Shown piece after piece: positions 17,763 through 50,884 of a DNA stretch of 64,000 nucleotides. Every line of letters begins with the position of its first letter. The first letter of the stretch is position 1. The notes under the pieces were generated by a model. The model did not search any database, had not been told where the DNA came from, and saw nothing but the letters and a program-made list of their open reading frames with translations. Origin of the DNA: Pseudomonadota bacterium (GTDB lineage Bacteria; Pseudomonadota; Gammaproteobacteria; Pseudomonadales; Ketobacteraceae); NCBI GenBank assembly GCA_036337295.1, contig JAYZEN010000013.1:187862-251861 (forward strand), given 5' to 3'. The translations under genes and the position numbers were made by a program.

Positions 17763-19577
17763 ATGGCTGACAGTAATGCACTCAATTGGAAAGACAAATA
17801 CCTGACTGCGCTTGAGGAGTTTGAACTCAGCCAGCAGCGGGATCAGTCGCGCCTGGACCTATTGCGCCGCGGCCTGGTGCGGGTGAGCCTGGCGGCAGAC
17901 GGCCTGGACCCCATTCTGGACGAACAATTGGATGAGATCCGCACCGCCTTGCGCGGGGGCCGCGACATTCAATCCCTGGAGCCGGTGATCGCCCAGCTGG
18001 AACGCACCATCATGGCCCTGGACGACCGCCGGAAGGATGACCAGAGCGAGCTGCAGGAGCTGATCGACACTCAGCTGGAAAAATACCTCGCCCTGAGCCT
18101 GCCCCGGGCCGACAAAACCACCATCAAGAAATTACGCAAATCCCTGCCCGAGTTGCTGGCGGGCAACGGCATGCAGTCCGATATGATCAAAGGCCTCAAC
18201 CAGGCCCACAATCGCGTCACAGGTCACCTGTTGGAACGCATTGAAGAGTTGGGCCAGGGCCAGAAAGGCGGGCTGCTGTCCCGCCTGTTCGGCGCCTCCA
18301 ACCCGGAGAAATCTGCACACCTGGAGGCGGACGCTGACGGTGTTAGCGATTTGACCGAAACGCCGGATCTGGCCGCAGCGGATTACGATGCACGGCACCC
18401 GGATGAGCAGGAACTCGCGCCACCGCATCTGAATATCGAACCCGAAGCTGCACCCGCTACAGTGGCTGAGTCTGCACTGGAAATTGCCCCCGAAATAACA
18501 CCCGCGACCAACCCGGACAGCGCGGATCAAAGCGATCCCCAGCTACCGGACCGGCTGAGCCGAATCCTGTGCAACCTGCTGGAGCAGCTGGAAGTACCCA
18601 CTGACTTCACCACCCGCAAGGAACGGCTGGTGGACCGCATCAAATCCGCCTTCAGCCTCAACAGCCTGCCGGATTTTCTGGACGAAACCACTCAGCTGGT
18701 GGCCTCCACCCGCCTGGTGGCCCAGAAGGAATTCGAAGGTTTTCTGGTGGCCTTGCACCAGCGCCTGAACGACATCCAGGATTTTCTGGTGACCGCCCGG
18801 GAAGGGGAGGAACGCAGCCAGCAGAACCAGGAGAAACTGGATCAGGATGTGCGCCAGGAACTGGCGGACATGCGGCAGAACGTGGCCGACACCAACGACC
18901 TGGGCAAACTGAAACTGGACATTGAAAGCATGGTGAACCGCATTGTGTCCGCCGTGGACCTGTTTCAGTCGGAAGAACGCAAGCGCCGGGAAGACGTGTA
19001 CCAACACATCGAAACCCTGGGTCAACGCATGGCCACCATGGAAGACGAAGCCACCCAACTGAAGAGCACCCTGGAAGCGCAACGAATGGAAGCGTTAAGG
19101 GACGCGCTCACCGAACTGCCCAACCGGGCTGCCTACGATGATTGCATCGAAGCAGAGTTTTCACGCTGGCGCCGCCACGGTCGCCCGCTTTCCCTGGCCA
19201 TCATCGACGTGGATCATTTCAAAGCGGTGAACGACAACCTGGGGCATCTACGGGGTGACAAAGTATTGAAACTGGTGGCCCGGGAAATTTCCCGCCGGGT
19301 CCGCAATGAGGATTTTGTCGCCCGTTACGGTGGCGAGGAGTTCATTGTGATCATGCCGGAAACCGATCTGCACGCGGCCCACGCGGCCATGGAAAAAGTG
19401 CGAGCCTCCATTGAAGCCTGCCCCTTCAACTTCAACCAGAAGCGCATTCCCATTACCGCCTCGTTCGGCATCTCGGCCTTTGTGGAAGGGGATGAAATCG
19501 TCACCTGCTTCGAACGGGCCGACCAGGCACTCTACAAAGCCAAGGGAAACGGTCGAAACCGGATAGAACTGGGCTAG
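17763..19577 (+). CDS. diguanylate cyclase (GGDEF) with long N-terminal coiled-coil/acidic region
   Basis: C-terminal GGDEF domain with an RYGGEEF active site and an RxxD I-site-like region (ISRRVRNEDFV). The N-terminal ~430 aa are coiled-coil rich. Confidence 0.85.
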   Translation: MADSNALNWKDKYLTALEEFELSQQRDQSRLDLLRRGLVRVSLAADGLDPILDEQLDEIRTALRGGRDIQSLEPVIAQLERTIMALDDRRKDDQSELQELIDTQLEKYLALSLPRADKTTIKKLRKSLPELLAGNGMQSDMIKGLNQAHNRVTGHLLERIEELGQGQKGGLLSRLFGASNPEKSAHLEADADGVSDLTETPDLAAADYDARHPDEQELAPPHLNIEPEAAPATVAESALEIAPEITPATNPDSADQSDPQLPDRLSRILCNLLEQLEVPTDFTTRKERLVDRIKSAFSLNSLPDFLDETTQLVASTRLVAQKEFEGFLVALHQRLNDIQDFLVTAREGEERSQQNQEKLDQDVRQELADMRQNVADTNDLGKLKLDIESMVNRIVSAVDLFQSEERKRREDVYQHIETLGQRMATMEDEATQLKSTLEAQRMEALRDALTELPNRAAYDDCIEAEFSRWRRHGRPLSLAIIDVDHFKAVNDNLGHLRGDKVLKLVAREISRRVRNEDFVARYGGEEFIVIMPETDLHAAHAAMEKVRASIEACPFNFNQKRIPITASFGISAFVEGDEIVTCFERADQALYKAKGNGRNRIELG

Positions 19578-19718
19578 ATACGGCCACCCACCCCCTCCTT
19601 TTGGCCGGCAACACCTATCCCCCCCTCCCGCGGACATGATCTAATTTTTTCTGTTCAGTCACACCTATCCAATCCTGGACATCGACAATAACAAAAACAA
19701 CGTACCTGGATTTAGTAC

Positions 19719-21098
19719 ATGACGACTCTACGCAGCTCCGCTTCGTTAACGTTATTGGACAAGGTCAACGTCTGTCTGCAGGACTTCGGGGACCATGTCA
19801 TGCATCTGATTTTTGATGTGCAGGGCGTTCTGCATCTGGAGCGCCTGCAACAGGCCCTGCGGCTCAGCCTGGAACAACATCCCATCATGGCCATGCGCCT
19901 GGAAGGTAGCGGGCTGCAGCCGAAATGGATTCGTCACACGCCTGCCACCCTGGCCCACTACGAATTTTGCGAGCACCACCTGCTTAACGGTGGCTCCGGC
20001 AATCATTCACTGCAGCACGCCATTGATGAATTCATGCTGCAGCAGTTTGATTATCAGCGTGTACCCATGGTGAAAGTGCGGGTCATTCAGCACGCGGCCC
20101 GTAACACCACATCACAAGATGCAACGCATACTATCTGCATTAAGGTCAGTTGTGTCCCCATCGATGGGAGGGGATTTTTGATTTATGTGGAGGATGTGCT
20201 CGCCCTGTATGAAAAACTGGAGCTGAACCCTTCCTTCCACCCGCAGCCCGGCACACTGAATCTGCGCAGCACCAAAGCACTGGTGCCGTATTTTCGCCCC
20301 CGGGATCTGTTGCCCCTGTTGTTCCATGGGCTCAAACATCAACTGCAGGACAGTCGCACCGCCCACAACTGGCAGGTGCCCTGCGTACCCGACAGCGCCA
20401 TTCACAAACGTTATCTTTGCCATCAGTGTTCACCGCGCACCCTGCAGGCACTGACCCGCTTTCGGCGACAGCAAGGGTTGAGTTTCAATGATGTATTGCT
20501 GGGTGCCTATTACCTGGCACTGCATGAACAGATTCAACCTGAGCACCAGGGCCCGTTCTGTGTGCTGAACACCTATGACCTGCGCCGGTACGAAACGGAC
20601 AAAGCTCCCCACCGAGTGGCCAATTATTCCAGCTTTATCAATACCAATGTGTCGCTCTCCGCGGGCAGCACCTTGTTGCAGGCCGCCCGCGCCGTACAGG
20701 ATGCCATCCACCAGCGCAAACAGCATTACCCCGGTATTACCGAAGGCCCCTTTATCTGGCCCTTGTTGACCTTTCTGCCGTTCGGCCTGGGCAGTCGCAT
20801 CGTGAAATTCCTGCTCAAGCATCGGGGCGAGAAAATCCCCGTGTTCACCAACGTGGGCGTGATCCCGGTGGAACGCATGCGGTTCAACGGCATGCCGATC
20901 CGCAACGTGCGACCCTTTGCACCATTGGAATACCCACCCAAACTAACGGTGACACTGGCCACCGCCGGCGAGGTCATCAGCCTGAGCGTGGGCTACAGCA
21001 ACCGCCATTTTGCCACCGACAACATGCAGCGCCTGTTCACGCGCATGGAACAACTGATTCAGGCCACCTGCACCCAAACGGTAACCGAGGCGGCGTGA
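19719..21098 (+). CDS. condensation-domain-like acyltransferase (PapA / WS-DGAT superfamily-like), putative
   Basis: 459 aa, the size of a stand-alone condensation domain. It carries an HHxxxDG-like box, EHHLLNGGSG. First gene of a co-directional lipid cluster. This is a motif-level call only. Confidence 0.45.
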   Translation: MTTLRSSASLTLLDKVNVCLQDFGDHVMHLIFDVQGVLHLERLQQALRLSLEQHPIMAMRLEGSGLQPKWIRHTPATLAHYEFCEHHLLNGGSGNHSLQHAIDEFMLQQFDYQRVPMVKVRVIQHAARNTTSQDATHTICIKVSCVPIDGRGFLIYVEDVLALYEKLELNPSFHPQPGTLNLRSTKALVPYFRPRDLLPLLFHGLKHQLQDSRTAHNWQVPCVPDSAIHKRYLCHQCSPRTLQALTRFRRQQGLSFNDVLLGAYYLALHEQIQPEHQGPFCVLNTYDLRRYETDKAPHRVANYSSFINTNVSLSAGSTLLQAARAVQDAIHQRKQHYPGITEGPFIWPLLTFLPFGLGSRIVKFLLKHRGEKIPVFTNVGVIPVERMRFNGMPIRNVRPFAPLEYPPKLTVTLATAGEVISLSVGYSNRHFATDNMQRLFTRMEQLIQATCTQTVTEAA

Positions 21099-21102
21099 GC
21101 AC

Positions 21103-23445
21103 ATGATTGAGCATCTGGTTCGACGGCGCTGGTGGTATTGTGTGGGCACCTTTCTGGTGATGGTGCTGCTTTCCAGTCAACTGCTGCATATGGTGTTCAA
21201 CGGCAACGTGAACGTCATGTTTGATGAAGACGATCCCCATTACCAGCGTCTGCAGCAACTGAATCAACAATACATCGACTCCAATTATCTGGTGCTGCTG
21301 TTCAAACCTGCACGAGGCAGCGTGTTTGACAATGACAACCTGCACATCATCCGTGAGTTGACCGAAGCCCTGTGGCAACTGCCTCACGTAGTCCGGGTGG
21401 ATTCCCTCACCAACTTTCCCCGCCTGCAGGTGGAGGGGGATTCCCTTATAGTGGCCAACCTTGTCCCTGAATCATCCCCCTCTGCGCCCTTAAGCCAGGG
21501 CCAACTGGACGCTATTCAACGCTACGCGCAAGAGGATCAACAGTTACATGGGCGCCTGGTGTCCCCGGATGGACAGGCCGGTGCTCTGTTTGCCAGCGTG
21601 GTGTTGCCGGAGGATCACCTGACTTCGGTTTTGGAATTGAGCCGCCATGCCTTGGCACTGCAACGGGATTTTGAGCAGCGTTACCCGGGCCTGGAGCTGC
21701 ACCTGAACGGCGACATCGCCATCGAAAACGCCATGCTGCAGGTGACCATGGACGACATACTGCGGGTGAATCCGTTGGTGTTCGCCACCATCTTCATCCT
21801 GCTGGGAATATTTCTGCGTTCGGTGATGGCCATCGCCGCCACCGGTGCCGTGGTGATCGCCGCCACCGGCATTGCCAGTAGCATTCATGTGTTGCTGGGA
21901 TTTGAAATGAATCCCATCACCATGATGGCGCCGGCCATCATCATGATCCTCGCCGTGGCAGACAGCATCCACGTACTCACCCTGTTTCGCATTCTGTGTG
22001 GCAACGGTACTGCACCCCTGCAGGCCATGACCCAAAGCCTGCGTAAAAACCTGAGCCCGGTGTTCTGGACCAGCGTGACCACGGCGGTGGGATTCCTCGG
22101 CATGAACTTTGGTGATTCGCCACCATTTCGCACCATGGGCAACATGGCTGCCATCGGTGTGGTGTTTGCGTTTGTCTGCACCTTCACGGTATTGCCGGCG
22201 GTGGCCCTGCAATTCGGCAATCGGTTCCAGGATCAACCGTTCAGCCTCACCCGCTGGATGGAACAACTCGCTCGTTGGGTCATCGCCTCCGGGCGCGCCA
22301 CGTCAGTGATGGTGGTCGCGTTGTTGGGTTCCCTGGCGTTGTTGCTGTGCATTCCCAATATGAAATTGAACGACGACATCTCGGAGTATTTCGACGAATC
22401 CCTGCCGATTTATGATTCCATCCAGTTTGCCCGCCAGCACACCAACGGCGTGCAGTTTATTGTTTATTCCATGGAATCCGGCCAGCCCAACGGCATCTAT
22501 CAACCAGCTTTTTTGAACGCGGTGGAGGCCTTCACCGATTGGTTGCGGCAACAGCCCGACGTGAGTGCCGTGACCAGTTATCTGGATGTATTGAAACGCA
22601 TTCACCGCACCATGAACCAGGATCAGCCGGAGTTTTATGCCATTCCCGATGATGCCGCCCTGATTGCCCAATACCAGCTGCTGTATGAGATGTCCCTGCC
22701 CCAGGGCATGGACCTGACCCACGACATTGCAGAGGATCATTCCGCTCTGAAACTCTCCGTCAACGTGCGCGACAGCGACAACCAGACCCTGATGAACCTG
22801 GAACAACAGATTGACGATTGGCTCGCCCAACATCAACCGGCGTTGCGCAGCCAGGGCAGCAGCCAGTTGCTGATGTTTGCTCACATGGGTTCGAACATCA
22901 TCCGTAGCATGGTGGATGGCTCCCTCTTCACCCTGGCCTTCATCACCCTGTTTATGATCGTCGGCCTGCGTTCATTCAAGTTCGGTCTGCTGAGTATTAT
23001 TCCCAATCTTTTCCCGGCCATCGTGGTGTATGGCATCTGGTCTCTCACGGTGGGGCACGTCAATCACGCGGCGGCCATGACCTTCAGCATCTGCCTGGGG
23101 CTGGTGGTGGACGACACCATTCATTTCATCAGCAAATATCTGTCCGCCCGCCGCCAGGGCCGCTCACCCCAGCAGGCCATTCACGACAGCTTCATTCAAT
23201 CCGGTACCGCCATCGTCATCACCTCGGTGATTCTGATCTGCGGTGTGCTGTTGCTGTCTCTATCGAATTTTACGGTGAACGACACCATGAGCCTGATGCT
23301 GGCGGGCATCATCTCCACTGCCTTGCTGTTCGACCTGCTGTTGTTACCCAGCCTATTGCTGTTTGCAGACCGCTTTGCGGTGGAACCCGATACCCGCATT
23401 GAACCTGATACCAGTTTTAAACCCGAATCCCACGTCAACACCTGA
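21103..23445 (+). CDS. RND-superfamily MMPL-type lipid exporter
   Basis: 780 aa. Two repeats, each with an N-terminal TM, a large periplasmic loop and a 5-TM bundle (e.g. VMAIAATGAVVIAATGIASS..., IIPNLFPAIVVYGIWSL...). Architecture matches COG1033/HpnN/MmpL exporters. Starts 4 nt after the upstream gene. Confidence 0.75.
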   Translation: MIEHLVRRRWWYCVGTFLVMVLLSSQLLHMVFNGNVNVMFDEDDPHYQRLQQLNQQYIDSNYLVLLFKPARGSVFDNDNLHIIRELTEALWQLPHVVRVDSLTNFPRLQVEGDSLIVANLVPESSPSAPLSQGQLDAIQRYAQEDQQLHGRLVSPDGQAGALFASVVLPEDHLTSVLELSRHALALQRDFEQRYPGLELHLNGDIAIENAMLQVTMDDILRVNPLVFATIFILLGIFLRSVMAIAATGAVVIAATGIASSIHVLLGFEMNPITMMAPAIIMILAVADSIHVLTLFRILCGNGTAPLQAMTQSLRKNLSPVFWTSVTTAVGFLGMNFGDSPPFRTMGNMAAIGVVFAFVCTFTVLPAVALQFGNRFQDQPFSLTRWMEQLARWVIASGRATSVMVVALLGSLALLLCIPNMKLNDDISEYFDESLPIYDSIQFARQHTNGVQFIVYSMESGQPNGIYQPAFLNAVEAFTDWLRQQPDVSAVTSYLDVLKRIHRTMNQDQPEFYAIPDDAALIAQYQLLYEMSLPQGMDLTHDIAEDHSALKLSVNVRDSDNQTLMNLEQQIDDWLAQHQPALRSQGSSQLLMFAHMGSNIIRSMVDGSLFTLAFITLFMIVGLRSFKFGLLSIIPNLFPAIVVYGIWSLTVGHVNHAAAMTFSICLGLVVDDTIHFISKYLSARRQGRSPQQAIHDSFIQSGTAIVITSVILICGVLLLSLSNFTVNDTMSLMLAGIISTALLFDLLLLPSLLLFADRFAVEPDTRIEPDTSFKPESHVNT

Positions 23446-23466
23446 CTGTTACCTGGAGTAAACACA

Positions 23467-24501
23467 ATGACCATGACACGATTCGAAAGTATAGGGGTGT
23501 ATCTTCCGGAACAGGAAGTCACCACCCGTGAACTGATTGACAGCATGGACACCGAACCCATGTTCGATCTGGAAAAGCTCACCGGCGTGAAAAGCCGTCG
23601 CTGGCGGGCACCCCATGAAGACTGTCACAGCCTGGCGCTGGAAGCCATCGAACGCTGCCTGGTGAACTCCCGCTATGAAGCCGACGAAATCGACGTGATC
23701 ATCTGCACCTCAATCACCCGTTTTAAAGACGGGCTCAAGTTTGTGTTGGAACCCTGCCTGAGCAGTTACCTGAAAAAACGCCTGGGCATGAGGGAAGATG
23801 CCTTGAATTTTGACATCACCAACGCCTGTGCCGGCATGTTCACCGGCGTACACGTGCTGGACCAGATGATCAAAAGCGGCGTGGTGCGCAACGGCCTCAT
23901 TGTCAGTGGTGAGTGCATTACCCCCATTTCCGAAACCGCATTGAAAGAAATCAACAACCCGGTGGATGAACAGTTCGCCTCCCTCACCGTGGGGGATTCC
24001 GGGGCCGCTGTATTGATGGATCAGTCCCCCAGCGACGACGAAGGGGTGGAGTTTCTGGAGTTGCTGACCTTGTCGCAGTTCTCGGACTTTTGTTACGGCA
24101 TGCCCAGCGATAAAAACCCCGGCGTGGCCATGTACACCAAGGCCATGGAAATTCACGCCACGGTGATTCAACGCCTGCCGCAAACACTGGGCCATTTTGC
24201 CGAGAAATACCAGGTCAGCGGCGCGGACTTTGCGCACGTGATTCCACATCAGACTTCCGAGCGCGCCATCCGCTCCGCCCTGGCCCTGTGCAGCGAATCC
24301 CTGGGCGACATTCCCAACATTTGCGTGTCGCTGGACCGCTACGGCAACACCTCTTCCACCTCGCACTTTGTGGTGCTCAACGACCACATCCAACAGGGCC
24401 ACATCCAGCCCGGGCAACGCATCCTGATGCTGGTGCTGGCCTCGGGTATTGTGTTGGGCGTGGCCTCCGTTCGCATCGGCAACCTGACAGGAGCACACTG
24501 A
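23467..24501 (+). CDS. FabH/OleA-like beta-ketoacyl synthase III (thiolase-fold condensing enzyme)
   Basis: Catalytic Cys in DITNACAGMF, His in VIPHQTSERA, Asn in DRYGNTSSTS: a complete Cys-His-Asn triad. 344 aa. Confidence 0.8.
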   Translation: MTMTRFESIGVYLPEQEVTTRELIDSMDTEPMFDLEKLTGVKSRRWRAPHEDCHSLALEAIERCLVNSRYEADEIDVIICTSITRFKDGLKFVLEPCLSSYLKKRLGMREDALNFDITNACAGMFTGVHVLDQMIKSGVVRNGLIVSGECITPISETALKEINNPVDEQFASLTVGDSGAAVLMDQSPSDDEGVEFLELLTLSQFSDFCYGMPSDKNPGVAMYTKAMEIHATVIQRLPQTLGHFAEKYQVSGADFAHVIPHQTSERAIRSALALCSESLGDIPNICVSLDRYGNTSSTSHFVVLNDHIQQGHIQPGQRILMLVLASGIVLGVASVRIGNLTGAH

Positions 24502-24502
24502 T

Positions 24503-25408
24503 ATGGGCAGCATGATCAAAGCCACCGCACTGGTCACCGACAACGGCTTCAGCGCCATCGACAACGCCACCCGCGCCGGACTGGACTGCCTGCAACAGGC
24601 CGGCATTCAGCCGCAACAGGTGGGCCTGCTGATCAACGCCGGGGTGTACCGGGACGACAACATCATGGAACCCAGCATCGCCAGTTTGATTCAACGGCAC
24701 ATGAACATGGGATTGGATTTTGCGGCAGACAGCCCCAACCAGGTCACCTTCTCGTTCGACGTGGTGAACGGCGCCTGCGGCTTTTTGAACGCGGTGACCA
24801 TCGCCGATGCCTTCCTGCGCAATGGCAGCGTGGAATACGCACTCATCGTGTGCGGCGACGCCCACCCTTCCAAAACCGACCACCCGGAGTTTCCCTACGT
24901 GGCGGTGGGAGCGGCCGCCCTGCTCCACCTTTCCACCGCTGCCGCCGACGCCAACAAGGGCTTTGGCCCGTTCGCCTACCGCAGCAACGAATCCGACTGC
25001 CTTTCCCACATCAGCACCTATGGCGACCTGGCCCAATTCGGCGACCAGGGCCGCGCCCAGGGCCAGTTCCAATTCAGCAATCAATATGTGGAGGAATTCC
25101 GCCGCTTGAACGTGACCCTCATCAACGAGTTTTTAGCACAGCATGAGCAGCCCCGGGTGGACTTTTTGTTGGGATCGGATCTGGAAGCGGGCTATTGCAA
25201 CAGCGTGTGCGCCAGCAGCGATTTAAAACGCCAGCCCACCAGAGCCATGGAATTGTTCGAACATTTCAACGGCGACCCCCACACCGCAGCCCCCATCGCC
25301 GCCTTTCACCAACTGCAGCGGGAAGTGGCCAACCCCAGCGGACTGTCGCTGTTATTCCACGCGGTGGGCTCCGGCGACGCCAGTGCCTGCGCACTGTATC
25401 GCTCATGA
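24503..25408 (+). CDS. KAS III-like paralogue, probably catalytically impaired partner subunit
   Basis: Clear FabH homology (GLLINAGV..., DVVNGACGF, LLFHAVGSGDA). No HQ(A/T)N His motif was found. Starts 1 nt after the upstream KAS III stop. Confidence 0.6.
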   Translation: MGSMIKATALVTDNGFSAIDNATRAGLDCLQQAGIQPQQVGLLINAGVYRDDNIMEPSIASLIQRHMNMGLDFAADSPNQVTFSFDVVNGACGFLNAVTIADAFLRNGSVEYALIVCGDAHPSKTDHPEFPYVAVGAAALLHLSTAAADANKGFGPFAYRSNESDCLSHISTYGDLAQFGDQGRAQGQFQFSNQYVEEFRRLNVTLINEFLAQHEQPRVDFLLGSDLEAGYCNSVCASSDLKRQPTRAMELFEHFNGDPHTAAPIAAFHQLQREVANPSGLSLLFHAVGSGDASACALYRS

Positions 25409-26409
25409 CGGGCAACGCACTGGTCACCGGCGGCGGCGGCTTTCTCGGCCGCTACATTGCCGAACAACTGCAACAAAGGGGTTATCAGGTCACGGTGTTT
25501 TGCCGTGGCCACTACCCGGACCTGGAACAAGCCGGAATACACGTGCAGCGAGGCGATGTGACCAACCCCATCCAACTGGAGAATGCCATCGCCGGGCAGG
25601 ACCTGGTGTTTCACGTGGCCGCCAAAGTGGGCTATTGGGGGGACTACCAGGATTACTACGCGGTGAACGTGCAAGGCACCGATCACGTCATCCGCGCCTG
25701 TCGCCAACAGGGCGTAAAAAAACTCATCTACACCAGCTCCCCTAGCGTCACCATGAACAACATCGACATTCACGGCGGCGACGAACAACTTCCCTACCCC
25801 AAGCACTACCACTCCCACTACTCCGCCACCAAAGCCATCGCCGAACGCAAAGTACTGGCCGCCCACAACCCCCGCGGCCTGCACACCGTCGCCATTCGCC
25901 CCCACCTGATCCTGGGCCCCCGGGACAACCACCTGCTGCCCCGCATACTGCAAAAAGCCCACAGCGGCCGCCTCAAACAGATCGGCCCCGGCCGCAACAA
26001 AGTGAGCGTCACCTATGTGGAAAACGCCGCCCACGCCCACATCCTGGCCGCCGAATCCCCCAACACCGGCGGCAACGCCTACTTCATCAACGAACCGGAC
26101 CCCATTCTGCTCTGGCCCTGGTTAAAGCAGATCCTAGAGAAGTTGGATGCTCCGCCCCCCAGATACCGCGTTCCATTCGCCCTGGCTTTTGCCGCCGGTT
26201 GGGTGCTGGAAAACCTGTACCGCGCCTTGCGTGTAAAACAGGAACCACTGGTGACCCGCTTTATTGCCTCGGAGCTGTACCGCAATCACTACTTTTCCAT
26301 CGACAAGGCGCGCCGCGATTTTGGCTATGAGCCGCTGTACAGCTTTACGCAAGCGGAGGCGAAGACGTTGGAGTATGTGCGGGGGGAGCTGGGGTTGGGT
26401 GGGGAGTAG
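25405..26409 (+). CDS. 3beta-hydroxysteroid-dehydrogenase/NAD-dependent epimerase family reductase (OleD-like)
   Basis: Rossmann motif LVTGGGGFLGRYI and YxxxK (YSATK). Its ATG at 25405 overlaps the upstream stop (ATGA). 334 aa. The longer ORF from 25195 is not supported. Confidence 0.75.
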   Translation: MTGNALVTGGGGFLGRYIAEQLQQRGYQVTVFCRGHYPDLEQAGIHVQRGDVTNPIQLENAIAGQDLVFHVAAKVGYWGDYQDYYAVNVQGTDHVIRACRQQGVKKLIYTSSPSVTMNNIDIHGGDEQLPYPKHYHSHYSATKAIAERKVLAAHNPRGLHTVAIRPHLILGPRDNHLLPRILQKAHSGRLKQIGPGRNKVSVTYVENAAHAHILAAESPNTGGNAYFINEPDPILLWPWLKQILEKLDAPPPRYRVPFALAFAAGWVLENLYRALRVKQEPLVTRFIASELYRNHYFSIDKARRDFGYEPLYSFTQAEAKTLEYVRGELGLGGE

Positions 26410-26763
26410 GCTTTATTGTTGGGTATTTTTTGTTCTGGTTGTTTCTTGATGGTTAATTCGTGCGGGTTAGTTTTCTGTATTCGTTATTAATATAGCGGGT
26501 TGACGACTTTGTCATACTGCGGTCAAATGGCTGTGGGGTGACTGTATTTGGACAGGCGATTTTTGAGGCCTGCTGGATATGGTGGATTTTTAGTGATTGA
26601 TGTTTAACGGGCTGATATGAGTTCTTCGTGAATCTGTGCAAGTGGATGGAAGTGGGTGCTTCCTTGATGTATTTGCTTGGTTAGGTGTGCGGAGGACGTA
26701 GATATGAATGTTATGGCTAAACCGGCTTTGCATCTACCAAAAGGGTGTTAAAGGAAGATTAAA

Positions 26764-27717
26764 ATGCAAAACATGAAAAAATACTTTGGGTTTGAAGTGA
26801 AGGTCTCTAATTTTCTTCACCCAGAAGATTTCTCTATCATTAAGGATAGGCTCGTTAGTTTTGCTAATTCAGAAGGTTTGGATCTTGATCAGTATCGTGT
26901 ATATCTTCATCAGCTCGTAATCTTAGCAAATGAATCACATTTTGGATTGGGCGGTGGTTTGCCCGCCAGGGTTGAAAATGTGTTATTAAAATTTTCGGTC
27001 AACTACAAACAAAAAAGAGATGGAGATATTATTTTTAAAAATAATCTTCTTGAAGAAATGGAAGGAGTTAAATCGTATACCCTTCCTCATGAAATTTGCT
27101 ACACAATTCCTCCCAGCTATTTTCTTGAAAAGCAACAATTTCAGAATGCAATTGTAACGTTTGTCAGTAAATCCCTTCGTCGCGAAGATTTCAAAAAAAT
27201 AAAAGTCTGTGTTTCAGCCAACGCTACTGCAGCATTTAGGCCGCTTATACAAAGCAATCTTGCGGCGGAATCAATAACTAATCTGGATCTTCCTTTAAAT
27301 AAGGGAGTGGATTTTGACAGCGAAATAACATTAAAGCTTCAAGGAAAATTAGGAGAGGTTAAAATGCCAGGAGATGATTCAAAAACAACTAATATCTTTA
27401 ACATTCAACAAGCGGGAGCAGTATCCGCATCGGGAGAAATAACGACTAATAATAATCTGAACCAACAGCAGCAAGGAATTCCCTTTGACCATGTCATCAA
27501 GGAAATGAAGCACCTTCAAACCCTGCTTGATAAGGAAGGACTTCCTGAGCCAAGAAAAAAGGAAGTGGAGGCACTAACAGATGCAATTCAATTGGCTGAT
27601 TCAAAAAGTGAATTTATACCAAAGCTAAAAGAGGCTGGTAGCTGGCTAGCTGATAAAGCCGAAAAAGTAGGCGTCTCTCTAGTAGCGGCGGCTATAAAAG
27701 GTCAGCTAGGTTTGTAA
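26764..27717 (+). CDS. hypothetical protein (317 aa), cassette 1
   Basis: AT-rich ORF with Lys/Asn-rich composition. No recognisable domain. Its stop lies 5 nt before an attC-like element. Confidence 0.55.
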   Translation: MQNMKKYFGFEVKVSNFLHPEDFSIIKDRLVSFANSEGLDLDQYRVYLHQLVILANESHFGLGGGLPARVENVLLKFSVNYKQKRDGDIIFKNNLLEEMEGVKSYTLPHEICYTIPPSYFLEKQQFQNAIVTFVSKSLRREDFKKIKVCVSANATAAFRPLIQSNLAAESITNLDLPLNKGVDFDSEITLKLQGKLGEVKMPGDDSKTTNIFNIQQAGAVSASGEITTNNNLNQQQQGIPFDHVIKEMKHLQTLLDKEGLPEPRKKEVEALTDAIQLADSKSEFIPKLKEAGSWLADKAEKVGVSLVAAAIKGQLGL

Positions 27718-27722
27718 TCAAG

Positions 27723-27836
27723 GCCATAACAAGTTGCAGCACGCGGAGCCAGTTACGCCGCACCAATATGTGGTCGCTCCGCTCTTTACCACATATTGTC
27801 ACGTCGCAACTGGTCCGGTGTGCAAGGCGTTAGAAC
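27723..27836 (+). repeat. attC-like recombination site 1 (114 bp)
   Basis: Begins GCCATAAC (exact complement of GTTATGGC at 26710-26717) and ends GTTAGAAC. Internal inverted repeats GCGGAGC/GCTCCGC and CCAATATGTGGT/ACCACATATTGT. Confidence 0.5.
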
Positions 27837-27902
27837 TTAGATCAGCTATTACCAAATCCGAATTATTGAAGTAATCATTCGTCAGCAATTTAAGGGGGGG
27901 CT

Positions 27903-28406
27903 ATGGATGAATTCCGGCTTGTAATTGAAATAATATCGTTATCTCTATTGGCGGGATCAGTTTTTTACGCGGCTCGCCAAATAAAAAGCAGCCATGATTG
28001 GAATCGTAGAAAAGCTGCACAAGATATAGCAATTAAATATGCTGAACTTAACCCGAATAAGGTTGTAATTAATGAATTTTTGGAACGCATAGGCCATAAA
28101 GAGGCGCTAAAACTAGAAGAATTAAAGGACGAATTTAAAAGGGCTAGCGATCTCAGAGATGCTATCGATACGCTTCTTAATTTCTACGAGTTCTTGGCAA
28201 TGGGCGTGGCGCAAAAAGTATATGATGAGAAACTTATTAGAATATTTTGGGGCGAAGCCATGAGTACGAATAGAATTCGATATAAATCGTATATTGATAA
28301 CTCTATTAAGGAAGAATACCCAGACCTGTGGAGATATTTTATATCCTACACAGCAAAGTGGGATTCACAAAAAAATCAAATTCAAGAGCGAGGCTCAACT
28401 GGGTAA
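27903..28406 (+). CDS. hypothetical membrane-anchored protein (167 aa), cassette 2
   Basis: N-terminal TM helix LVIEIISLSLLAGSVFYAA. No known domain. Confidence 0.5.
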   Translation: MDEFRLVIEIISLSLLAGSVFYAARQIKSSHDWNRRKAAQDIAIKYAELNPNKVVINEFLERIGHKEALKLEELKDEFKRASDLRDAIDTLLNFYEFLAMGVAQKVYDEKLIRIFWGEAMSTNRIRYKSYIDNSIKEEYPDLWRYFISYTAKWDSQKNQIQERGSTG

Positions 28407-28420
28407 ATTTTGTTCGTCAA

Positions 28421-28475
28421 ATTCTAACAATTTGGTGCAGTGGAGCCAGTTACGCTCCGCAAAATTAGTTATTAA
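28421..28475 (+). repeat. attC-like recombination site 2 (about 55 bp)
   Basis: Begins aTTCTAAC (complement of GTTAGAA, which ends site 1). Internal GGAGCcagttacGCTCC hairpin, shared with site 1 (GGAGCCAGTTACGC). Ends GTTATTAA. Confidence 0.45.
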
Positions 28476-28497
28476 TTCCCTCAAGGAGAAAGGAATA

Positions 28498-29664
28498 ATG
28501 AAAGCATACCTATTCGCATTCTGTATTTTGGCGTCCTTGAGTGGATGCGCATCATTTACTCATTACACAAAGGAAACCGATTTGAAGAATTCCAAGGCGG
28601 TTTTTGTGGATGCGAAGCAAAGAGGGATCTACAAGTTTCAAGTAAAAGACCCGCAAGGAAACGTGACTTGGGAGGGAGTTTGTGCGGAGCCATCACCTGA
28701 TGCAGTATCAGCTCTAGCAGCAACTTTAGGTGTTGATCTTTCAATAAATGATAAGGGTCAATTTGGGTTGTCTCAAGCGATATCCGAAGGTGTTAGTAGT
28801 ATCGGCCTCAGAACTGCGGCCATTGAAGCACTGCGGGATATTATGTATCGAAACTGCGAAGCTTATGCTTTAGGCGGAGTATCTAGCATGGGATTGGAGA
28901 CACTCCAAAGAAGATTTCAAAGCACTATGGTAGCGATCTTAGCAATAGAGCAATTGACGGGCGCTGTTCGTCCTCCCGCCACTATTATAGTTAGCAACTC
29001 AAAAGCAGGTGATGCTGATGCGATCGTTGACCTAACTAATAAAACTGAAACAGCGCGAAAATCTCTAGTAGATGCAAAAGAAATCGAAGAAAAAGCCAAA
29101 TCCGAGTTTGATTCGGCAACCACAAAGCAGAGCGACTCCGGGAAAAAAGTAGGGGATGGAAAAGCTGAGTATGACCGCATAAAAGCACTCGCCACTCAAA
29201 CAGATGAAGAAAAGAAAAAAGTTGCTGAGTATCAGGCCCTATTAAAAGAAGACGACGCCAACAAGAAAGCTACAGAAGAAAAGAAGAAAGAATATGACAC
29301 AGCTCAAGCGACCACCAAGGAGCGAGACCAAGCGCTTAAAGCTCTGGACGCATCAAGAGTTGCCGCTCTAACTGGAGGAGGGAGCTCTGGTAATGCCGGA
29401 GAAATTGAAAAAATTGCCCCTCGAACTGCTTTATCCGACGCGGCTGTTAAAGATATAGCGCTCGCTGTTACAAAAATCGTAGAGACAACGGTAAGCCTAA
29501 ATTACACATCCGAGGTTTGTACGACGTTAGTGGGACAGCATCCAGAGATAAAACCGGAGTACGGGTCACCAACATGGGCTTGTACAGTTTTGTTGACATC
29601 CCAGGACAAAAGCCCGAGTGCTATTCAGCAGCAGTTGTTTAATATTTTAAGTAAGCCGGAGTAG
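28498..29664 (+). CDS. lipoprotein with central Lys/Glu-rich coiled-coil (388 aa), cassette 3
   Basis: Lipobox LASLSGC after a signal peptide. RBS AAGGA. Central KKKVAEYQALLKEDDANKKATEEKKKEYD coiled-coil. Cys-containing C-terminal domain. Confidence 0.6.
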   Translation: MKAYLFAFCILASLSGCASFTHYTKETDLKNSKAVFVDAKQRGIYKFQVKDPQGNVTWEGVCAEPSPDAVSALAATLGVDLSINDKGQFGLSQAISEGVSSIGLRTAAIEALRDIMYRNCEAYALGGVSSMGLETLQRRFQSTMVAILAIEQLTGAVRPPATIIVSNSKAGDADAIVDLTNKTETARKSLVDAKEIEEKAKSEFDSATTKQSDSGKKVGDGKAEYDRIKALATQTDEEKKKVAEYQALLKEDDANKKATEEKKKEYDTAQATTKERDQALKALDASRVAALTGGGSSGNAGEIEKIAPRTALSDAAVKDIALAVTKIVETTVSLNYTSEVCTTLVGQHPEIKPEYGSPTWACTVLLTSQDKSPSAIQQQLFNILSKPE

Positions 29665-29672
29665 ACAGGTAT

Positions 29673-29700
29673 GCCTAACAAGCCAATGCACGCGGAGCAA
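29673..29700 (+). repeat. truncated attC-like site 3 (canonical inverse core GCCTAAC)
   Basis: GCCTAACAAGCCAATGCACGCGGAGC matches the 5' half of site 1 (GCCATAACAAGTTGCAGCACGCGGAGC). It lacks the 3' arm. Confidence 0.4.
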
Positions 29701-29728
29701 AAAAAATCAGATTCTTCCCGGTGAGCTA

Positions 29729-29971
29729 ATGAAGAAGATAGGCTGGTTTATAGTAGGATTTATCGCTTCTACTTTCCTCTTTTTCTGCGCGGTCTATCTG
29801 CTCGGTTGGGCAACGGAGTACCTGGGCTTTCCTCTTTACGAATCGGAATCAGATCAGCAACGGAACTTCAATATAGTTCTTGTGGGTTGGCTTTTAGTTG
29901 CAACGGTATCTGGGTTCCTCACCACAAGAATAAAAACCGGCATGTCCACCCCCAATCACTCTCAGAGATAA
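29729..29971 (+). CDS. small two-TM membrane protein (80 aa), possible cassette 4
   Basis: Two hydrophobic helices. The ORF runs from AT-rich DNA into the high-GC flank, so its 3' end is uncertain. Confidence 0.3.
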   Translation: MKKIGWFIVGFIASTFLFFCAVYLLGWATEYLGFPLYESESDQQRNFNIVLVGWLLVATVSGFLTTRIKTGMSTPNHSQR

Positions 29972-29985
29972 GCACACCGGCACCA

Positions 29986-43068: not shown

Positions 43069-43977
43069 TTATTCACCCAGGTCGATTTTCCTGAGCAGCG
43101 TTTCCAATTGCTGCTCAAAATCCTGGGGTTTGGAATCGACTCGAAAATAGAAAGGGGGGCGCCCCTGCCAATCCTCCGACCAGACGGCATCGCGCCCCTG
43201 TTCCATGAACTTCACTATGGCAATCAGCACATTGTCCTGCAGGATTCGGGCGTTCATCAGCGGGTTGCCGGAGGGTTGCAGTGGGTAGTACACCAGCCAG
43301 GGGCGTGCGTTTTCGTCCTTGGGGTCCAAGCGCCTTAGGTACAGATAAAGCGACTGAAAATTGCTGAAGTAGGAAAATTTCTCATAGCGCTGCGCCCATA
43401 CCTCACCGGAACGCCACGTATAGACAATGCGGCGCTCACGGTCGAAAAACAGCGGTGCATGGCGCCGCATGGACACTGACCAGGCACCCAGGAAGAGAAG
43501 GATGGTAATGGGTATGGACGTCATCAGAATGTCGGTTTGGCGGGTTCGGTCCGGATAGGCGTAGAAATTATGACTGTAACGCATCTGAGTCATGTACGTC
43601 ATGAAGGGAAGGGTTCGACCCTCAAAGACGGCGACAAACTTCTGTAGAGATTTACTATCTGACGCCGTTAGATAGTCCTCTCCATGCTTTTCTATTTCCA
43701 GGTCTATCCGCCACAACCCCCTTTGCTCCGCGCCTTTCCAGGAACGATAGACATCCTCCCCCTGCAGACACAGCACCGCCACCATGCCCAGCATCCAGGG
43801 AATAAAGAACATATTACGCACGGCGACATAATTGTCTTTAAACGCCAGAGTAAGTTGATCAATCCCCAGAATCGGAGGCGTCGGCTTTTTGAAACGCGGC
43901 AACTCGCGGCTCAGTAACTGTGCTGACTCATCAGCGAGCGGCTTGGCAGCTGGCAGGCTCTTTACAGTTCTCAACAT
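43069..43977 (-). CDS. membrane protein, putative T6SS immunity protein for the upstream effector
   Basis: 302 aa, two predicted TM helices (FFIPWMLGMVAVLCL; ILMTSIPITILLFLGAW). Last gene of the vgrG operon, 9 nt after the effector stop. Confidence 0.5.
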   Translation of the reverse strand: MLRTVKSLPAAKPLADESAQLLSRELPRFKKPTPPILGIDQLTLAFKDNYVAVRNMFFIPWMLGMVAVLCLQGEDVYRSWKGAEQRGLWRIDLEIEKHGEDYLTASDSKSLQKFVAVFEGRTLPFMTYMTQMRYSHNFYAYPDRTRQTDILMTSIPITILLFLGAWSVSMRRHAPLFFDRERRIVYTWRSGEVWAQRYEKFSYFSNFQSLYLYLRRLDPKDENARPWLVYYPLQPSGNPLMNARILQDNVLIAIVKFMEQGRDAVWSEDWQGRPPFYFRVDSKPQDFEQQLETLLRKIDLGE

Positions 43978-43986
43978 TCAGACCTT

Positions 43987-46900
43987 TCAGGCAACTTCAT
44001 CATTGATCATACCGACCACAGGACTCTCAATCAGACCGTCGTCCGTCAGATAGCGCATCGGTACGACTGTGTTGGGGGTGGGTTTATAGGCCCAAAACAA
44101 TTCAATATCCTCCTGGGCGTCGAACTCCACCAATACATTCGTAAAACCATCCCGCTCTTCAAACCTGGCGGCTTCTATAGCTTCGCCTAACTTGGCCGTC
44201 AACGCCTTATTCTCCCGCCACACACCGGCACTGAAAACATTAAAATCAATATGACGAGTACGTACCTCATACATAATATCGGACACACCGATCTGAAATC
44301 TGGGCAACGAGAACTTTAATGAGAACGTTCTAGTATCACCGGAGGTATCAAACCAACCCTCTGTATCCGAAAGTTCCAGCGTTGGCATGTTCAGGTAGTT
44401 CATAAACTCCTGTAATTCAACTTTGTACGCAGACAGCACCATCGGATTACTCGCCATCTCTTTGGCATCTTCAATACGGTCTGCAACGTCAGGCCGGTCG
44501 TCCTCGAATTCCCAAAACCCATATTTACTGCTCACACCCCAGAAGCAATTTTCCAACAACCGCTGGAAATCCGACTTCCCATATATCCACAGCAGTGCCG
44601 CACCTGTCCCCATACACAATAACCCGACCACTATTACAACCAGGCCGGGGGGAGCCCCGACCCCAGTCGCAGTGGCACCGCCACCGGCAGCCGCTGCGGC
44701 CGCGCCTACACCTTGGAGAGTGGCCAGTATAATGGCAATAGAACCCACTGCCAGCACAAAGTGCCCAGCCGCTTCACCTCGATTGTCGCCCTGCCAGGAG
44801 TTGATGCCGTTCCAGACCGAAGCAGTAGCCGAGGCAAAATTTGCTACCACGATGACACGGGAAAACAGCTGTGACTTCAACAAGGTGCCCAGCACCGAGG
44901 CTCGATCACTCAGTTTCGGTGCCAGGGAGGCGATTACCTGATTGGATGCCTGCGCTGAAGCACTTGCCGAGACGCCCACCGCAGCTCGGCTGATGGTCAA
45001 CACATCCACCGTCAACGACGTCACGGCGGAGGCGAATTGAATCAGGCCATGCACAGTATGCCCCCGCTGCAAAGGGTCATTATCGTAATAGTCCGCCTGC
45101 AAATACAAGTCATAGATCACGCGGCAGTTGGCGTAAGCGGATAAACCCGCAAAGCCGGACTCTGCCGCCACCCCAATACCCTCACCCACACTTTTCGGCA
45201 CCACAAAAGAGAATCGCTTTCCAGGCAGGCGGGTAATCTCGATTTCTGACAGTTCCACATAACGGGGTATGGTGGTCTTTTTGGTTTTTTGTCCCCAATC
45301 AAACATCTTCTGGGCACGGGACAGTGCCTTTTCTGCCGCCTTTAATACATCATCCCCTGCTGTCCCCGGGTAAGACCGGGCGGACGCTTCAATCTGCTCC
45401 GCCAGAATCTGCCCCAACTTCTCCGGCGTATACCGTACTCGATTGGCATTATCCACCGTTATGCCCATAGCCTTGTGCACATAGGGAATGACCTGATTGA
45501 CGGTGTACTTGTAAACATTGGCCAGAAAGCGATTCTTGGCCCGCACCGACACCTGTGCCTCATAAATGGAGAACACTGCAATTTTGGCCCACAGCGGGCC
45601 CAGTTGCTGCAGCAGTTTATCCATTGGGACGCCCACCTTGGCCGCCCAATCTACGGTGTCCTGCGGTGCAGTCACTATGCCTTTGAACACACCAAAAAAC
45701 GCCACATAGGCATTCTTGTCGTTGTTGAAGTCTTCAAGTATTTTTTCTATAACGGAATTGCCCCGGTCAGAGGACAGTATTCCATTGAAAATACCCGCAC
45801 CAATCTCACACAGTTTGGCCAACTCCGCGGTTGCTTCATCCCCTTTCGCGGTATCCTGACAAAAGAATTTCTGGAAATAGTTGTCCAGAGAACCGACCTT
45901 ACCGGTCACCCCCGCGCCGTGCATGAACGCACGATAGAGTTCCACAAACTGTTCCTGTCGGGCCGCAAAGTCCTTGAACTCCTGATCAATTCCAGCCCAG
46001 TATTGATCGTAATCCCCCCAATTTATCGATTCCTTCAGTACATCCTGCAGCGCTTCATCGTTGGATTGTTTCAGCTGCCCCACTAGCTGCCCAATGGTAA
46101 ATGGATAAAGATTCTGCGATGCATAGGCCTTCTCCCACAGCGCCAACTTGGCGTGCACCTCGGCAATGTCTCTTTGTCTGCCGACCGGATCATGCAATGC
46201 CACCACGCGGGCGGTTTCACCCGGTTTGGTTTTGCGTCTCAGCGCCAGTGCAATCTGGTCCGCATCCATGTCGTAGCTGGACTGAGTCGTCAGCACGTCG
46301 AGCGCCAGGTCTTTCACACTGGGATCTGTACTGCTGTTTTTTATCCGTAACAGGCGCGCCTTCTGTTCCCGATAATCCTCAACCAGGCGCGCCAGATTCT
46401 CCGCAGTGGCCGGCACCGCCGCCGGATCGTCGCTCTTAAGCTTGATCCTTTGCATGGACGCAGCCCGCTCACCCGCATCTCCGTTCATTTTATCGATGAT
46501 ATCGGGATGCCACTCGTGCTCACTATACGCAATACTGATTTCAGTGACCTCCTTGCGCACAAAAACGAAGGGATAGCCTCCTTTGACGCCCCCCGATGTA
46601 TCCTCTTTAAGACCACCCTGGGCATTCACTCCATTAGCGAACTGGTATTTTGGAAAACGCTCTTCCAGCTGCCCGTTATTCTCCACCGGTGCATATTTAA
46701 AGATCTGGAAGTGGCCGCCGTTCGGGCCATCTTCTTCCCGTATATAAATCCAACCAGGTCGCAACAATCTTGGCACATAGCCGTTGGTACTGTTCAGGTC
46801 TGCCGCATCCAGCATGGCCGAGAGTGGAGGTGGTTCCGTTGGCGCGAGCAACGACTCCTCAAAGAAGTTTGCATAGGCGTAGCGCACCGGATAGATCGGG

Positions 46901-46995
46901 GTAACGATCGTACCCACAACCAGGGTATTGACTTCGTTCAATGCTACGGGCCTGGGCTCAACACCAGCAGCGGGCGGGGTTTGATTGGTGGTCAT
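43987..46995 (-). CDS. large T6SS cargo effector candidate with C-terminal transmembrane hairpins (VasX-like membrane-disrupting toxin)
   Basis: 1002 aa. No enzymatic motif is recognisable. C-terminal third has two strongly hydrophobic Gly/Ala-rich helices (HFVLAVGSIAIILATLQGVGAAAAAAGGGATATGVGAPPGLVVIVVGLLCMGTGAALLWIY). Sits downstream of vgrG in the same operon. Confidence 0.55.
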   Translation of the reverse strand: MTTNQTPPAAGVEPRPVALNEVNTLVVGTIVTPIYPVRYAYANFFEESLLAPTEPPPLSAMLDAADLNSTNGYVPRLLRPGWIYIREEDGPNGGHFQIFKYAPVENNGQLEERFPKYQFANGVNAQGGLKEDTSGGVKGGYPFVFVRKEVTEISIAYSEHEWHPDIIDKMNGDAGERAASMQRIKLKSDDPAAVPATAENLARLVEDYREQKARLLRIKNSSTDPSVKDLALDVLTTQSSYDMDADQIALALRRKTKPGETARVVALHDPVGRQRDIAEVHAKLALWEKAYASQNLYPFTIGQLVGQLKQSNDEALQDVLKESINWGDYDQYWAGIDQEFKDFAARQEQFVELYRAFMHGAGVTGKVGSLDNYFQKFFCQDTAKGDEATAELAKLCEIGAGIFNGILSSDRGNSVIEKILEDFNNDKNAYVAFFGVFKGIVTAPQDTVDWAAKVGVPMDKLLQQLGPLWAKIAVFSIYEAQVSVRAKNRFLANVYKYTVNQVIPYVHKAMGITVDNANRVRYTPEKLGQILAEQIEASARSYPGTAGDDVLKAAEKALSRAQKMFDWGQKTKKTTIPRYVELSEIEITRLPGKRFSFVVPKSVGEGIGVAAESGFAGLSAYANCRVIYDLYLQADYYDNDPLQRGHTVHGLIQFASAVTSLTVDVLTISRAAVGVSASASAQASNQVIASLAPKLSDRASVLGTLLKSQLFSRVIVVANFASATASVWNGINSWQGDNRGEAAGHFVLAVGSIAIILATLQGVGAAAAAAGGGATATGVGAPPGLVVIVVGLLCMGTGAALLWIYGKSDFQRLLENCFWGVSSKYGFWEFEDDRPDVADRIEDAKEMASNPMVLSAYKVELQEFMNYLNMPTLELSDTEGWFDTSGDTRTFSLKFSLPRFQIGVSDIMYEVRTRHIDFNVFSAGVWRENKALTAKLGEAIEAARFEERDGFTNVLVEFDAQEDIELFWAYKPTPNTVVPMRYLTDDGLIESPVVGMINDEVA

Positions 46996-47025
46996 GTTGG
47001 GTTCCAGTGCGGATGATGCGTTTAA

Positions 47026-47682: not shown

Positions 47683-47704
47683 GGTTTCAGGTCTTCAAAT
47701 GAAT

Positions 47705-50828: not shown

Positions 50829-50884
50829 GATCGCACCACATTCCGGCACTTGCCATAATAAACCAGTCGGTCTATTATCACCCC

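Follow-up and report, generated by a model that had tools for sequence, protein, structure and literature searches.

A conserved five-gene operon of Ketobacter that may direct synthesis and export of a mycolic-acid-like branched lipid by OleA- and OleD-type enzymes

The stretch of DNA analysed here, a 64 kb window from a Ketobacter genome, carries at 19719-26409 on its + strand an operon of five genes, which we call g1 to g5. The first, g1 (19719..21098, +, 459 aa), encodes a stand-alone protein of the condensation/CAT superfamily (Pfam Condensation), and g2 (21103..23445, +, 780 aa) an MMPL/HAE3-type RND transporter (Pfam MMPL). They are followed by two genes for thiolases of the KAS III class (β-ketoacyl-ACP synthase III; ACP, acyl carrier protein), namely g3 (23467..24501, +, 344 aa), which matches ACP_syn_III and ACP_syn_III_C and is the putative catalytic 'A' subunit of a pair, and g4 (24503..25408, +, 301 aa), a shortened paralogue with a sub-threshold match to ACP_syn_III and the putative 'B' subunit. 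The last gene, g5 (25405..26409, +, 334 aa), encodes an OleD-like NAD(P)H-dependent reductase of the 3-beta-HSD/extended short-chain dehydrogenase/reductase type (Pfam 3Beta_HSD). An original prediction, made from the letters of the sequence, had described five co-directional, tightly packed genes of this content, and both the five + strand open reading frames (ORFs) and a Pfam hidden Markov model (HMM) scan bear it out. It had also described several overlapping stop and start codons; a true overlap is found at g4/g5 only (4 nt, ATGA), the other genes being spaced by 4 nt (g1/g2), 21 nt (g2/g3) and 1 nt (g3/g4).

The start codon of g5 is probably the ATG at 25405, which yields the 334-aa protein and is the start on a nearly identical public contig; a longer ORF opening at a TTG at 25195 is probably an artefact of ORF listing. 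A scan of 19400-26900 for promoters and terminators returned a single promoter-like site, on the wrong strand, and terminator-like sites at the level seen in shuffled sequence.

In g3 the residues Cys121, His261 and Asn294 are invariant across 75 homologues, which agrees with its earlier description as a FabH/OleA-like thiolase with an intact Cys-His-Asn triad. The companion protein g4, which reaches 23.1 bits on the Pfam ACP_syn_III model, just under the cut-off, has neither the His nor the Asn, and the Cys is kept in most of its homologues, not all. The claim that g4 is a KAS III paralogue lacking the His is thus correct and extends to the Asn, but the protein has the character of a B subunit and not of a degenerate copy. 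What it has kept is Glu56, in the motif NIMEPSIA, which does not vary in either of two independent alignments, one of 12 and one of 28 sequences. This residue aligns within the SRDYLEPSTAS (LEPS) segment of Xanthomonas OleA, the Glu of which we take to be OleA Glu117, and E. coli FabH has no Glu at the position aligned to it. Xanthomonas OleA also provides the best solved-structure matches to g4 (42-45 bits), ahead of FabH (~26 bits). At the equivalent position of g3, Glu95, homologues have E, K or D, as one would predict were the base supplied by the partner.

This division of features is the one published for LstAB and NltAB, in which the A subunit carries the triad and the B subunit is truncated and triad-less, with a Glu (LstB E60, NltB E57) that head-to-head Claisen condensation requires, activity appearing only on co-expression of both subunits (PMC12141560; bioRxiv 10.1101/856955). 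Given that g3 and g4 agree with these published descriptions at the level of sequence, our best reading is that they would form a heterodimeric OleA of the LstAB/NltAB type. The listianol preprint gives 'Lst' names to unrelated genes of the DarAB type.

The pair is not peculiar to the window. A profile search with g4 retrieved 80 metagenomic loci, and wherever upstream sequence was available the B gene was directly preceded by an A gene. Contexts were counted in the 31 non-redundant loci that had at least 4 kb on each side. Ten of these have OleC-like and OleD-like genes in an nltABCD-like order, nine have g1, MMPL and OleD (a number inflated by our g1-based genome scan), ten have the pair alone, and the remaining two have, respectively, MMPL with OleD and the full set of OleB, OleC and OleD (L006, a metagenome-assembled genome (MAG) labelled Promethearchaeota). 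The AMP-binding proteins at L006 and L026 score 451 and 500 bits on the NCBIfam olefin beta-lactone synthetase model and also exceed the cut-off of PRK09274, and the L006 hydrolase is haloalkane-dehalogenase-like on NCBIfam, as is expected of an OleB.

A neighbour-joining tree of the A subunits, rooted on E. coli FabH, without bootstrap and containing no characterised heterodimer, places all g1+MMPL+OleD loci in a single clade. Next to it fall pairs of the full-ole type (L006, L057) and a clade from anaerobes in which the pair stands alone, and the pairs of the OleC+OleD type form a clade of their own. The simplest history is that the architecture arose once from an ole-type ancestor, with oleB and oleC lost or never present and g1 and g2 gained.

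Two kinds of locus met in this survey merit description in their own right. At L006 (10001-15895, on a contig of 228 kb assigned to an Asgard archaeon) a full ole-type cluster with a split OleA runs A, B, a 62-aa ORF, OleB-like, OleC-like, OleD-like, and L065 has a like cluster; L057 and L065 share the 62-aa ORF, at 72-80% identity, and the window has no equivalent of it. Lone A+B pairs (L004, L018, L019, L027, L030, L052, L104 and about 30 more) have no OleB, OleC, OleD, g1 or MMPL gene within 7-10 kb; their hosts include Spirochaetes, Syntrophales, Myxococcota, Mycolicibacterium and soil organisms, and long-chain ketones are one possible product. A DUF362 gene follows the lone pair in L018, as it does a relative of g1 in L102.

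The reductase g5 scores 182 bits on Pfam 3Beta_HSD, and its top two NCBIfam matches are the models for 2-alkyl-3-oxoalkanoate reductase (OleD), at 357.8 and 339.4 bits. The next family, HpnA, follows at 152 bits, more than 185 bits lower, and sugar epimerases lie far below. Thus g5 does not group with ordinary sugar epimerases, an outcome that the original prediction had named among those that would refute it. The nucleotide-binding motif GGGGFLG at residue 9 and the YxxxK motif (YSATK) at residue 139 are intact. On the same two models the reductase of the full ole cluster at L006, which is 49% identical to g5, scores 350 and 346 bits, level with g5.

Neither of the enzymes that act after OleA and OleD in the olefin pathway was found nearby. 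Among the scanned larger ORFs of the window Pfam detected no AMP-binding protein of the OleC type and no alpha/beta-hydrolase of the OleB type, and tblastn of the window with OleB, OleC and the 62-aa ole-linked protein as queries gave chance matches only, all with E >1. In about 10 related g1+MMPL+OleD loci no OleB or OleC was detected within 10 kb of the operon. The predicted absence of both is therefore borne out locally, for the window and for the flanks of its relatives, and over that range the cluster is without the defining trait of ole and beta-lactone clusters, an OleC-type synthetase.

The protein g1 has a condensation fold. It scores 50.9 bits on Pfam Condensation (cut-off 30.6), with PapA_C and WS_DGAT_C matched below their cut-offs, and its AlphaFold2 model is a two-lobed condensation/CAT fold (predicted local distance difference test score (pLDDT) 87.5, predicted template-modelling score (pTM) 0.88). 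Foldseek matched this model with a probability of 1.00 and template-modelling (TM) scores of 0.6-0.75 to the condensation, epimerisation and cyclisation (C/E/Cy) domains of nonribosomal peptide synthetases (NRPS), to TRI3, to AzeD and to PapA5 (1q9j; TM 0.62-0.75). The protein has no hydrophobic segment and is probably soluble.

The active site is another matter. The His of the HHxxxDG motif is the catalytic base in PapA5 and in the wax ester synthase/diacylglycerol acyltransferase (WS/DGAT) enzymes. In g1 the place of this motif is occupied by S144-C145-V-P-I-D149-G150 (SCxxxDG), and in HMMER alignments C145 falls on the residue that is the catalytic His in solved C/E domains. This Cys is present in 24/24 members of the g1 family. 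An exhaustive profile search yielded 534 representative relatives at E <=1e-30, and of the closest relatives outside the g1 subfamily 143/144 have His at this position, which makes the His-to-Cys change a derived trait of the operon-linked subfamily. The description of g1 as a condensation-domain-like acyltransferase therefore stands as to the fold, but the canonical PapA5-like mechanism cannot be assumed, given that the catalytic His has become an invariant Cys.

Further residues are invariant in the subfamily and rare among its relatives (H26, R249, N284, Y303, E342, K408 and H430), and most of the other invariant residues are common to the His-type relatives, including D149, R289, N378, D287 and N257-D258. 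From these residues we read g1 as having an active site that is probably remodelled but working. Its ratio of nonsynonymous to synonymous substitution rates (dN/dS) is 0.15-0.19. It is plausible that Cys145 would act as a nucleophile, by way of a covalent acyl-enzyme, and that the new basic residues would bind a free carboxylate.

The two nearest relatives of g1 that have the His (L101, L102) sit in lipid-type clusters. The closest, at L101 4602-16314 (GCA_054868705.1), lies with a FabA/ApeI-like dehydratase, two ketosynthases, two ketoreductases, a nitroreductase, an ACP and four consecutive radical-SAM genes, in what is an unusual cluster of the fatty-acid or polyketide-type lipid kind. The neighbours at L102 are EtfA, an acyl-CoA dehydrogenase, a 3-beta-HSD enzyme, a canonical C-like protein with the motif HHAAVDG, and DUF362.

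The family of g2 is as predicted. It matches Pfam MMPL at 113.8 bits (cut-off 20.5) in two stretches, and its hydropathy profile has an RND-like arrangement, in which one hydrophobic segment is followed by a large loop and then by a hydrophobic block, the whole occurring twice. The NCBIfam HAE3, MMPL and HpnN subfamily models are all matched below their cut-offs, and the best solved relatives, MmpL4 and MmpL5, are distant (30-43 bits).

Ketobacter is a genus of cosmopolitan marine alkane degraders of the Gammaproteobacteria, also associated with plastics, and the host is thus Gram-negative, as had been stated. Proteins of a Ketobacter MAG share 95% identity with g1 and 100% with g3. The cultured type strain of K. 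alkanivorans (CP022684.1) has all five genes in identical order at the identical chromosomal site, near 2,411,857-2,418,447 of that record, flanked upstream by engB, cytochrome c, dsbA, Exo_endo_phos and GGDEF genes and downstream by recG. In a 6.4 Mb Ketobacteraceae genome (a MAG) the operon lies between different, unrelated flanking genes. The upstream GGDEF gene was considered as a member of the system and rejected; it is syntenic in Ketobacter, but the operon has other flanks in the Ketobacteraceae MAG.

A scan of one genome per species turned up relatives of g1 in 11 loci and no more, all of them in MAGs classed as Ketobacter, Ketobacteraceae, Pseudomonadales, Gammaproteobacteria or Pseudomonadota. 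Wherever a related locus spans the region it has the order g1-g2-g3-g4-g5, down to 47% identity in g1, and the five genes are for this reason not neighbours by chance. The exception is L012, where g1 stands alone beside a ferredoxin reductase, a fatty-acid desaturase and an arylamine N-acetyltransferase; on L020, a contig from the same sequencing run, g2-g3-g4-g5 occur without g1. Compared with three orthologous loci, all five genes have dN/dS values of 0-0.19, so that the operon is being maintained and is not decaying. This purifying selection, together with the conservation across the clade, rules out a recent degenerate remnant of an ole cluster.

Among characterised systems the closest are LstAB/LstD of Streptomyces toxytricini (lipstatin) and NltAB/NltD of Nocardia brasiliensis (nocardiolactone). 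They share with the operon the adjacent KAS III A and B genes, the adjacent reductase of the 3-beta-HSD family and, as judged from published descriptions, a conserved Glu of the B subunit near residue 57-60, which in g4 is E56; the nltABCD order is moreover common to many of the metagenomic relatives of the g3/g4 pair. They differ in that the operon has no OleC/LstC/NltC beta-lactone synthetase, and hence no lactone is expected of it; in that it has no NRPS or formyltransferase, having instead a Cys-type condensation-fold protein and an MMPL transporter; and in their hosts, which are actinomycetes and not a marine gammaproteobacterium.

The likeness to OleABCD of Xanthomonas campestris and Shewanella lies in the first two chemical steps proposed for the operon, in the alignment of g4, which is best with Xanthomonas OleA, in the scores of g5, which are highest on the two OleD equivalog models, and in the closest relatives outside the clade, which include clusters with OleB-, OleC- and OleD-like genes (L006, L065). 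In contrast to these systems, where OleA is a homodimer of one protein, the operon has two specialised subunits, it lacks OleB and OleC, it has an exporter and a condensation-fold protein in addition, and both g3 and g5 fall under the NCBIfam equivalog cut-offs.

Two further comparisons concern logic and parts. In the mycolate route of Pks13, CmrA and MmpL3, a Claisen condensation of two long acyl chains gives a 2-alkyl-3-keto acyl product that is transferred to a carrier, reduced at the keto group and exported by an MMPL protein. The parallel with the operon, in which g2 belongs to the MMPL family, is one of logic only, and we claim no homology of pathway: a KAS III pair stands in place of the polyketide synthase (PKS) Pks13 with FadD32 and a carboxylated substrate, the operon has no trehalose-related gene, and g2 is distant even from MmpL4/5. 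With PapA5/MmpL7 of the phthiocerol dimycocerosate (PDIM) system and with WS/DGAT enzymes the operon has in common a stand-alone condensation-fold protein of ~450 aa beside an MMPL gene, weak PapA_C and WS_DGAT_C matches below the cut-offs, and PapA5 among the structural matches; it differs in having Cys for their catalytic His, and no PKS or ACP partner nearby. A literature search found no publication describing this cluster architecture, in agreement with the original view of it as undescribed.

Taken together, these observations lead us to propose that the operon is a derivative of the ole/beta-lactone pathway, re-wired for export, that makes a mycolic-acid-like branched lipid, a reading to which we give a probability of roughly one half. 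In the proposed pathway an acyl chain would be loaded on Cys121 of g3 and Glu56 of g4 would reach into the g3 active site as the base, so that the heterodimer could couple two fatty acyl-CoAs in a head-to-head, non-decarboxylative condensation, giving a 2-alkyl-3-ketoacyl product. Reduction of the 3-keto group by g5 would then give the 2-alkyl-3-hydroxy skeleton, which is the mycolic-acid motif. Judged from the sequences, these two steps are probable. Given that neither OleC nor OleB is present, the pathway would halt at this oxygenated, branched stage. The part of g1 would be to modify the lipid or to hand it over, most likely by an ester-forming acyl transfer, perhaps through an acyl-Cys145, which could either acylate the 3-OH or move the branched acyl chain to an acceptor; judged on its residues and fold, an ester-forming role is a tentative assignment, one that we hold with less than even confidence. 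Finally g2 would move the product from the inner membrane to the envelope or the medium, where in an alkane degrader it might serve as an outer-membrane or surfactant lipid. The identities of the genes, their catalytic residues, their conservation, the selection on them and their co-occurrence are observed here; it is from the comparisons above that we infer the heterodimer, the head-to-head chemistry, the reduction, the reaction of g1, the exported product and its role. The most specific form of the proposal, that Ketobacteraceae make a 2-alkyl-3-hydroxy lipid by a thiolase route unrelated to Pks13, esterify it by a new class of condensation-fold enzyme that works through an active-site Cys, by covalent acyl-enzyme catalysis, where His is usual, and export it by the MMPL protein as an outer-membrane or surfactant lipid that aids the handling of hydrocarbons, is doubtful.

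Several observations weigh against the proposed pathway. For the thiolase pair, g3 scores 90 bits with E. coli FabH against 58 bits with Xanthomonas OleA, and on NCBIfam it matches FabH-type models at ~143-147 bits, below the equivalog cut-offs. For g4, AlphaFold2 predicts the whole thiolase fold (pLDDT 87.9), which FabH, PqsD and OleA match equally, and the fold thus does not discriminate; the OleA assignment accordingly rests on the Glu motif, the A/B architecture and the gene context. About a third of the thiolase-pair loci have no OleC or OleD nearby, from which it follows that the pair has other uses too. The score of g5 lies under the NCBIfam equivalog cut-off of 580 bits (NF042422/NF042423), although, given that the L006 reductase scores at the same level, this cut-off excludes a whole divergent lineage. 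As for g1, the canonical acyltransferase reaction is not expected of a protein whose sequence lacks the catalytic His, members of its fold among the Foldseek neighbours are also dehydratases, epimerases, cyclases and non-catalytic scaffolds, and in one Ketobacter lineage (L012, L020) g1 appears to be unlinked from the rest. Finally, the product of OleA-type enzymes in characterised systems is a free acid and not an activated acyl donor (PMC12141560; bioRxiv 10.1101/856955).

Two alternatives concern g1. This protein might carry out other chemistry in place of OleC and OleB, a dehydration, lactonisation or elimination on the 2-alkyl-3-hydroxy or 3-keto intermediate, in which case an alpha,beta-unsaturated branched acid, a ketone, a lactone or a hydrocarbon would be exported and not an ester. 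The dehydratases AzeD (8s6l) and AmbE-CmodAA (7r9x) and the cyclisation and epimerisation domains among its structural neighbours are in keeping with this, as are the occurrence of g1 and MMPL in a clade without OleB and OleC and the arrival of the Cys together with the subfamily-specific R249, K408, H430, Y303, N284 and E342, which points to a remodelled active site. We nevertheless consider it unlikely, since we know of no Cys-type condensation-fold enzyme with any of these activities, since the closest His-bearing relatives lie beside ACP and ketosynthase genes or a canonical C-like enzyme, as would fit acyl transfer, and since no ATP-dependent activating enzyme is present, which known beta-lactone formation needs (bioRxiv 10.1101/856955). 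Alternatively, g1 might be an inactive scaffold in the manner of an NRPS X-domain, docking the cytosolic thiolase and reductase, or the lipid, onto the MMPL protein, with the free 2-alkyl-3-hydroxy acid being exported. The loss of the catalytic His, the presence of the teicoplanin X-domain (4tx2, 4tx3) among the structural matches and the position of g1, which in nearly all cases immediately precedes the MMPL gene (by a 4-nt gap in the window), could be so explained. However, the replacement is an invariant Cys and not a variable residue, the conservation of D149, G150, R289, N378, D287 and N257-D258 argues for a working active site, and with the dN/dS value of g1 on the same side this scaffold role seems improbable.

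The remaining alternatives touch the pathway as a whole. If the thiolase pair in this lineage did not catalyse head-to-head condensation, acting for example in decarboxylative priming or in a PqsBC- or DarB-like reaction, g5 would have a different substrate and the lipid would be unrelated to the mycolate type. The FabH-leaning scores of g3, the third of related pairs that stand without any ole gene, and the existence outside the ole family of heterodimeric KAS III enzymes with one inactive subunit, such as PqsBC, all speak for this. Set against them are the invariant Glu of the B subunit, in a motif without equivalent at the aligned position of E. coli FabH, the match of g4 to OleA ahead of FabH, the clear grouping of g5 with OleD, the frequent adjacency of the pair to OleC-like and OleD-like genes, and the much weaker solved-structure match of g3 to PqsC (29-33 bits), and we hold this possibility to be quite unlikely. 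It might also be argued that an ordinary olefin or beta-lactone pathway is present, with oleC (and oleB) elsewhere in the Ketobacter chromosome and g1 and g2 only modifying or exporting its product. Our inspection covered the window and the 10 kb flanks of its relatives, which leaves room for this and weighs to that extent against the proposed pathway; ole genes are, moreover, not always contiguous, and clusters with intervening genes are described (PMC7064751). Yet in every other type of context the distance from the pair to the OleC-like gene is no more than a few kb, the architecture without OleB and OleC is stable across the clade, down to the most divergent g1 (47% identity) and at different chromosomal sites, and a hydrocarbon has no obvious need of a condensation-fold enzyme, all of which makes such a dispersed pathway improbable.

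Were the proposed pathway correct, it would represent a third outcome of OleA/OleD chemistry beyond olefins and beta-lactones, namely an exported, oxygenated, alpha-branched lipid. It would mean that skeletons of the mycolate type also arise outside the Mycobacteriales, by a non-homologous route, and that a Gram-negative bacterium has a mycolate-like envelope lipid. An envelope or surfactant lipid specific to Ketobacter could in turn play into the uptake of hydrocarbons, and would be of interest as a bio-surfactant. With its own conserved residues, the Cys-for-His subfamily is a concrete instance, open to testing, of a change of mechanism within a very large superfamily. Since the cultured and fully sequenced K. 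alkanivorans carries the operon, the prediction can be tested directly.

The surroundings of the operon in the window are of separate interest. Directly downstream of g5, at 26720-30600, lies a low-GC segment (43-44%) with genes for a 317-aa protein of no family, a DUF4760 protein, a 456-aa protein that is faintly LmuB-like, and an HNH endonuclease; PADLOC returned nothing significant for the genes of this segment. In a closely related Ketobacter MAG (L001 13245-19145; cf. L103 11881-12422) ~340 bp after g5 are shared, and then a different cargo follows, with ccdAB, a CBASS CD-NTase with Cap15, and a gene with an FRG domain. No cargo of this kind is present in the K. alkanivorans type strain, and the site looks like a variable island hotspot, perhaps for defence, that in the window holds an uncharacterised gene set. 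Beyond it, at 31118-34413, the sigma-54 activator gene rtcR and the RNA ligase gene rtcB are divergently oriented, with no rtcA seen there, and tRNA-Met(CAT) at 34338-34413 is the only tRNA gene of the window. The whole block of ~26.7-36.4 kb is absent from the K. alkanivorans site, where the operon is followed by a response-regulator gene and recG.

Farther downstream, on the - strand at 43069-49996, is a type VI secretion cargo with a VgrG-like spike (Phage_GPD, Gp5_C) and a 1002-aa protein with a VasX toxin N-terminal region; the 302-aa protein of no family encoded after the VasX-type gene could be an immunity or accessory partner. An mpaB/Lcp-type oxygenase, of the rubber-oxygenase catalytic domain family, is encoded on the - strand within 59866-62717 beside an ABC-2 transporter pair, and near it, at 58146-59756, lies a gene for a FadL/TodX outer-membrane channel for hydrophobic compounds. 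This grouping is suggestive in a hydrocarbon- and polymer-associated bacterium. At 50088-52600 a nitroreductase, a TetR regulator and an NAD_binding_4/epimerase-type reductase, which is fatty acyl-CoA reductase-like, occur together, the last being a second lipid-reductase-like gene in the window that is unrelated to the operon.

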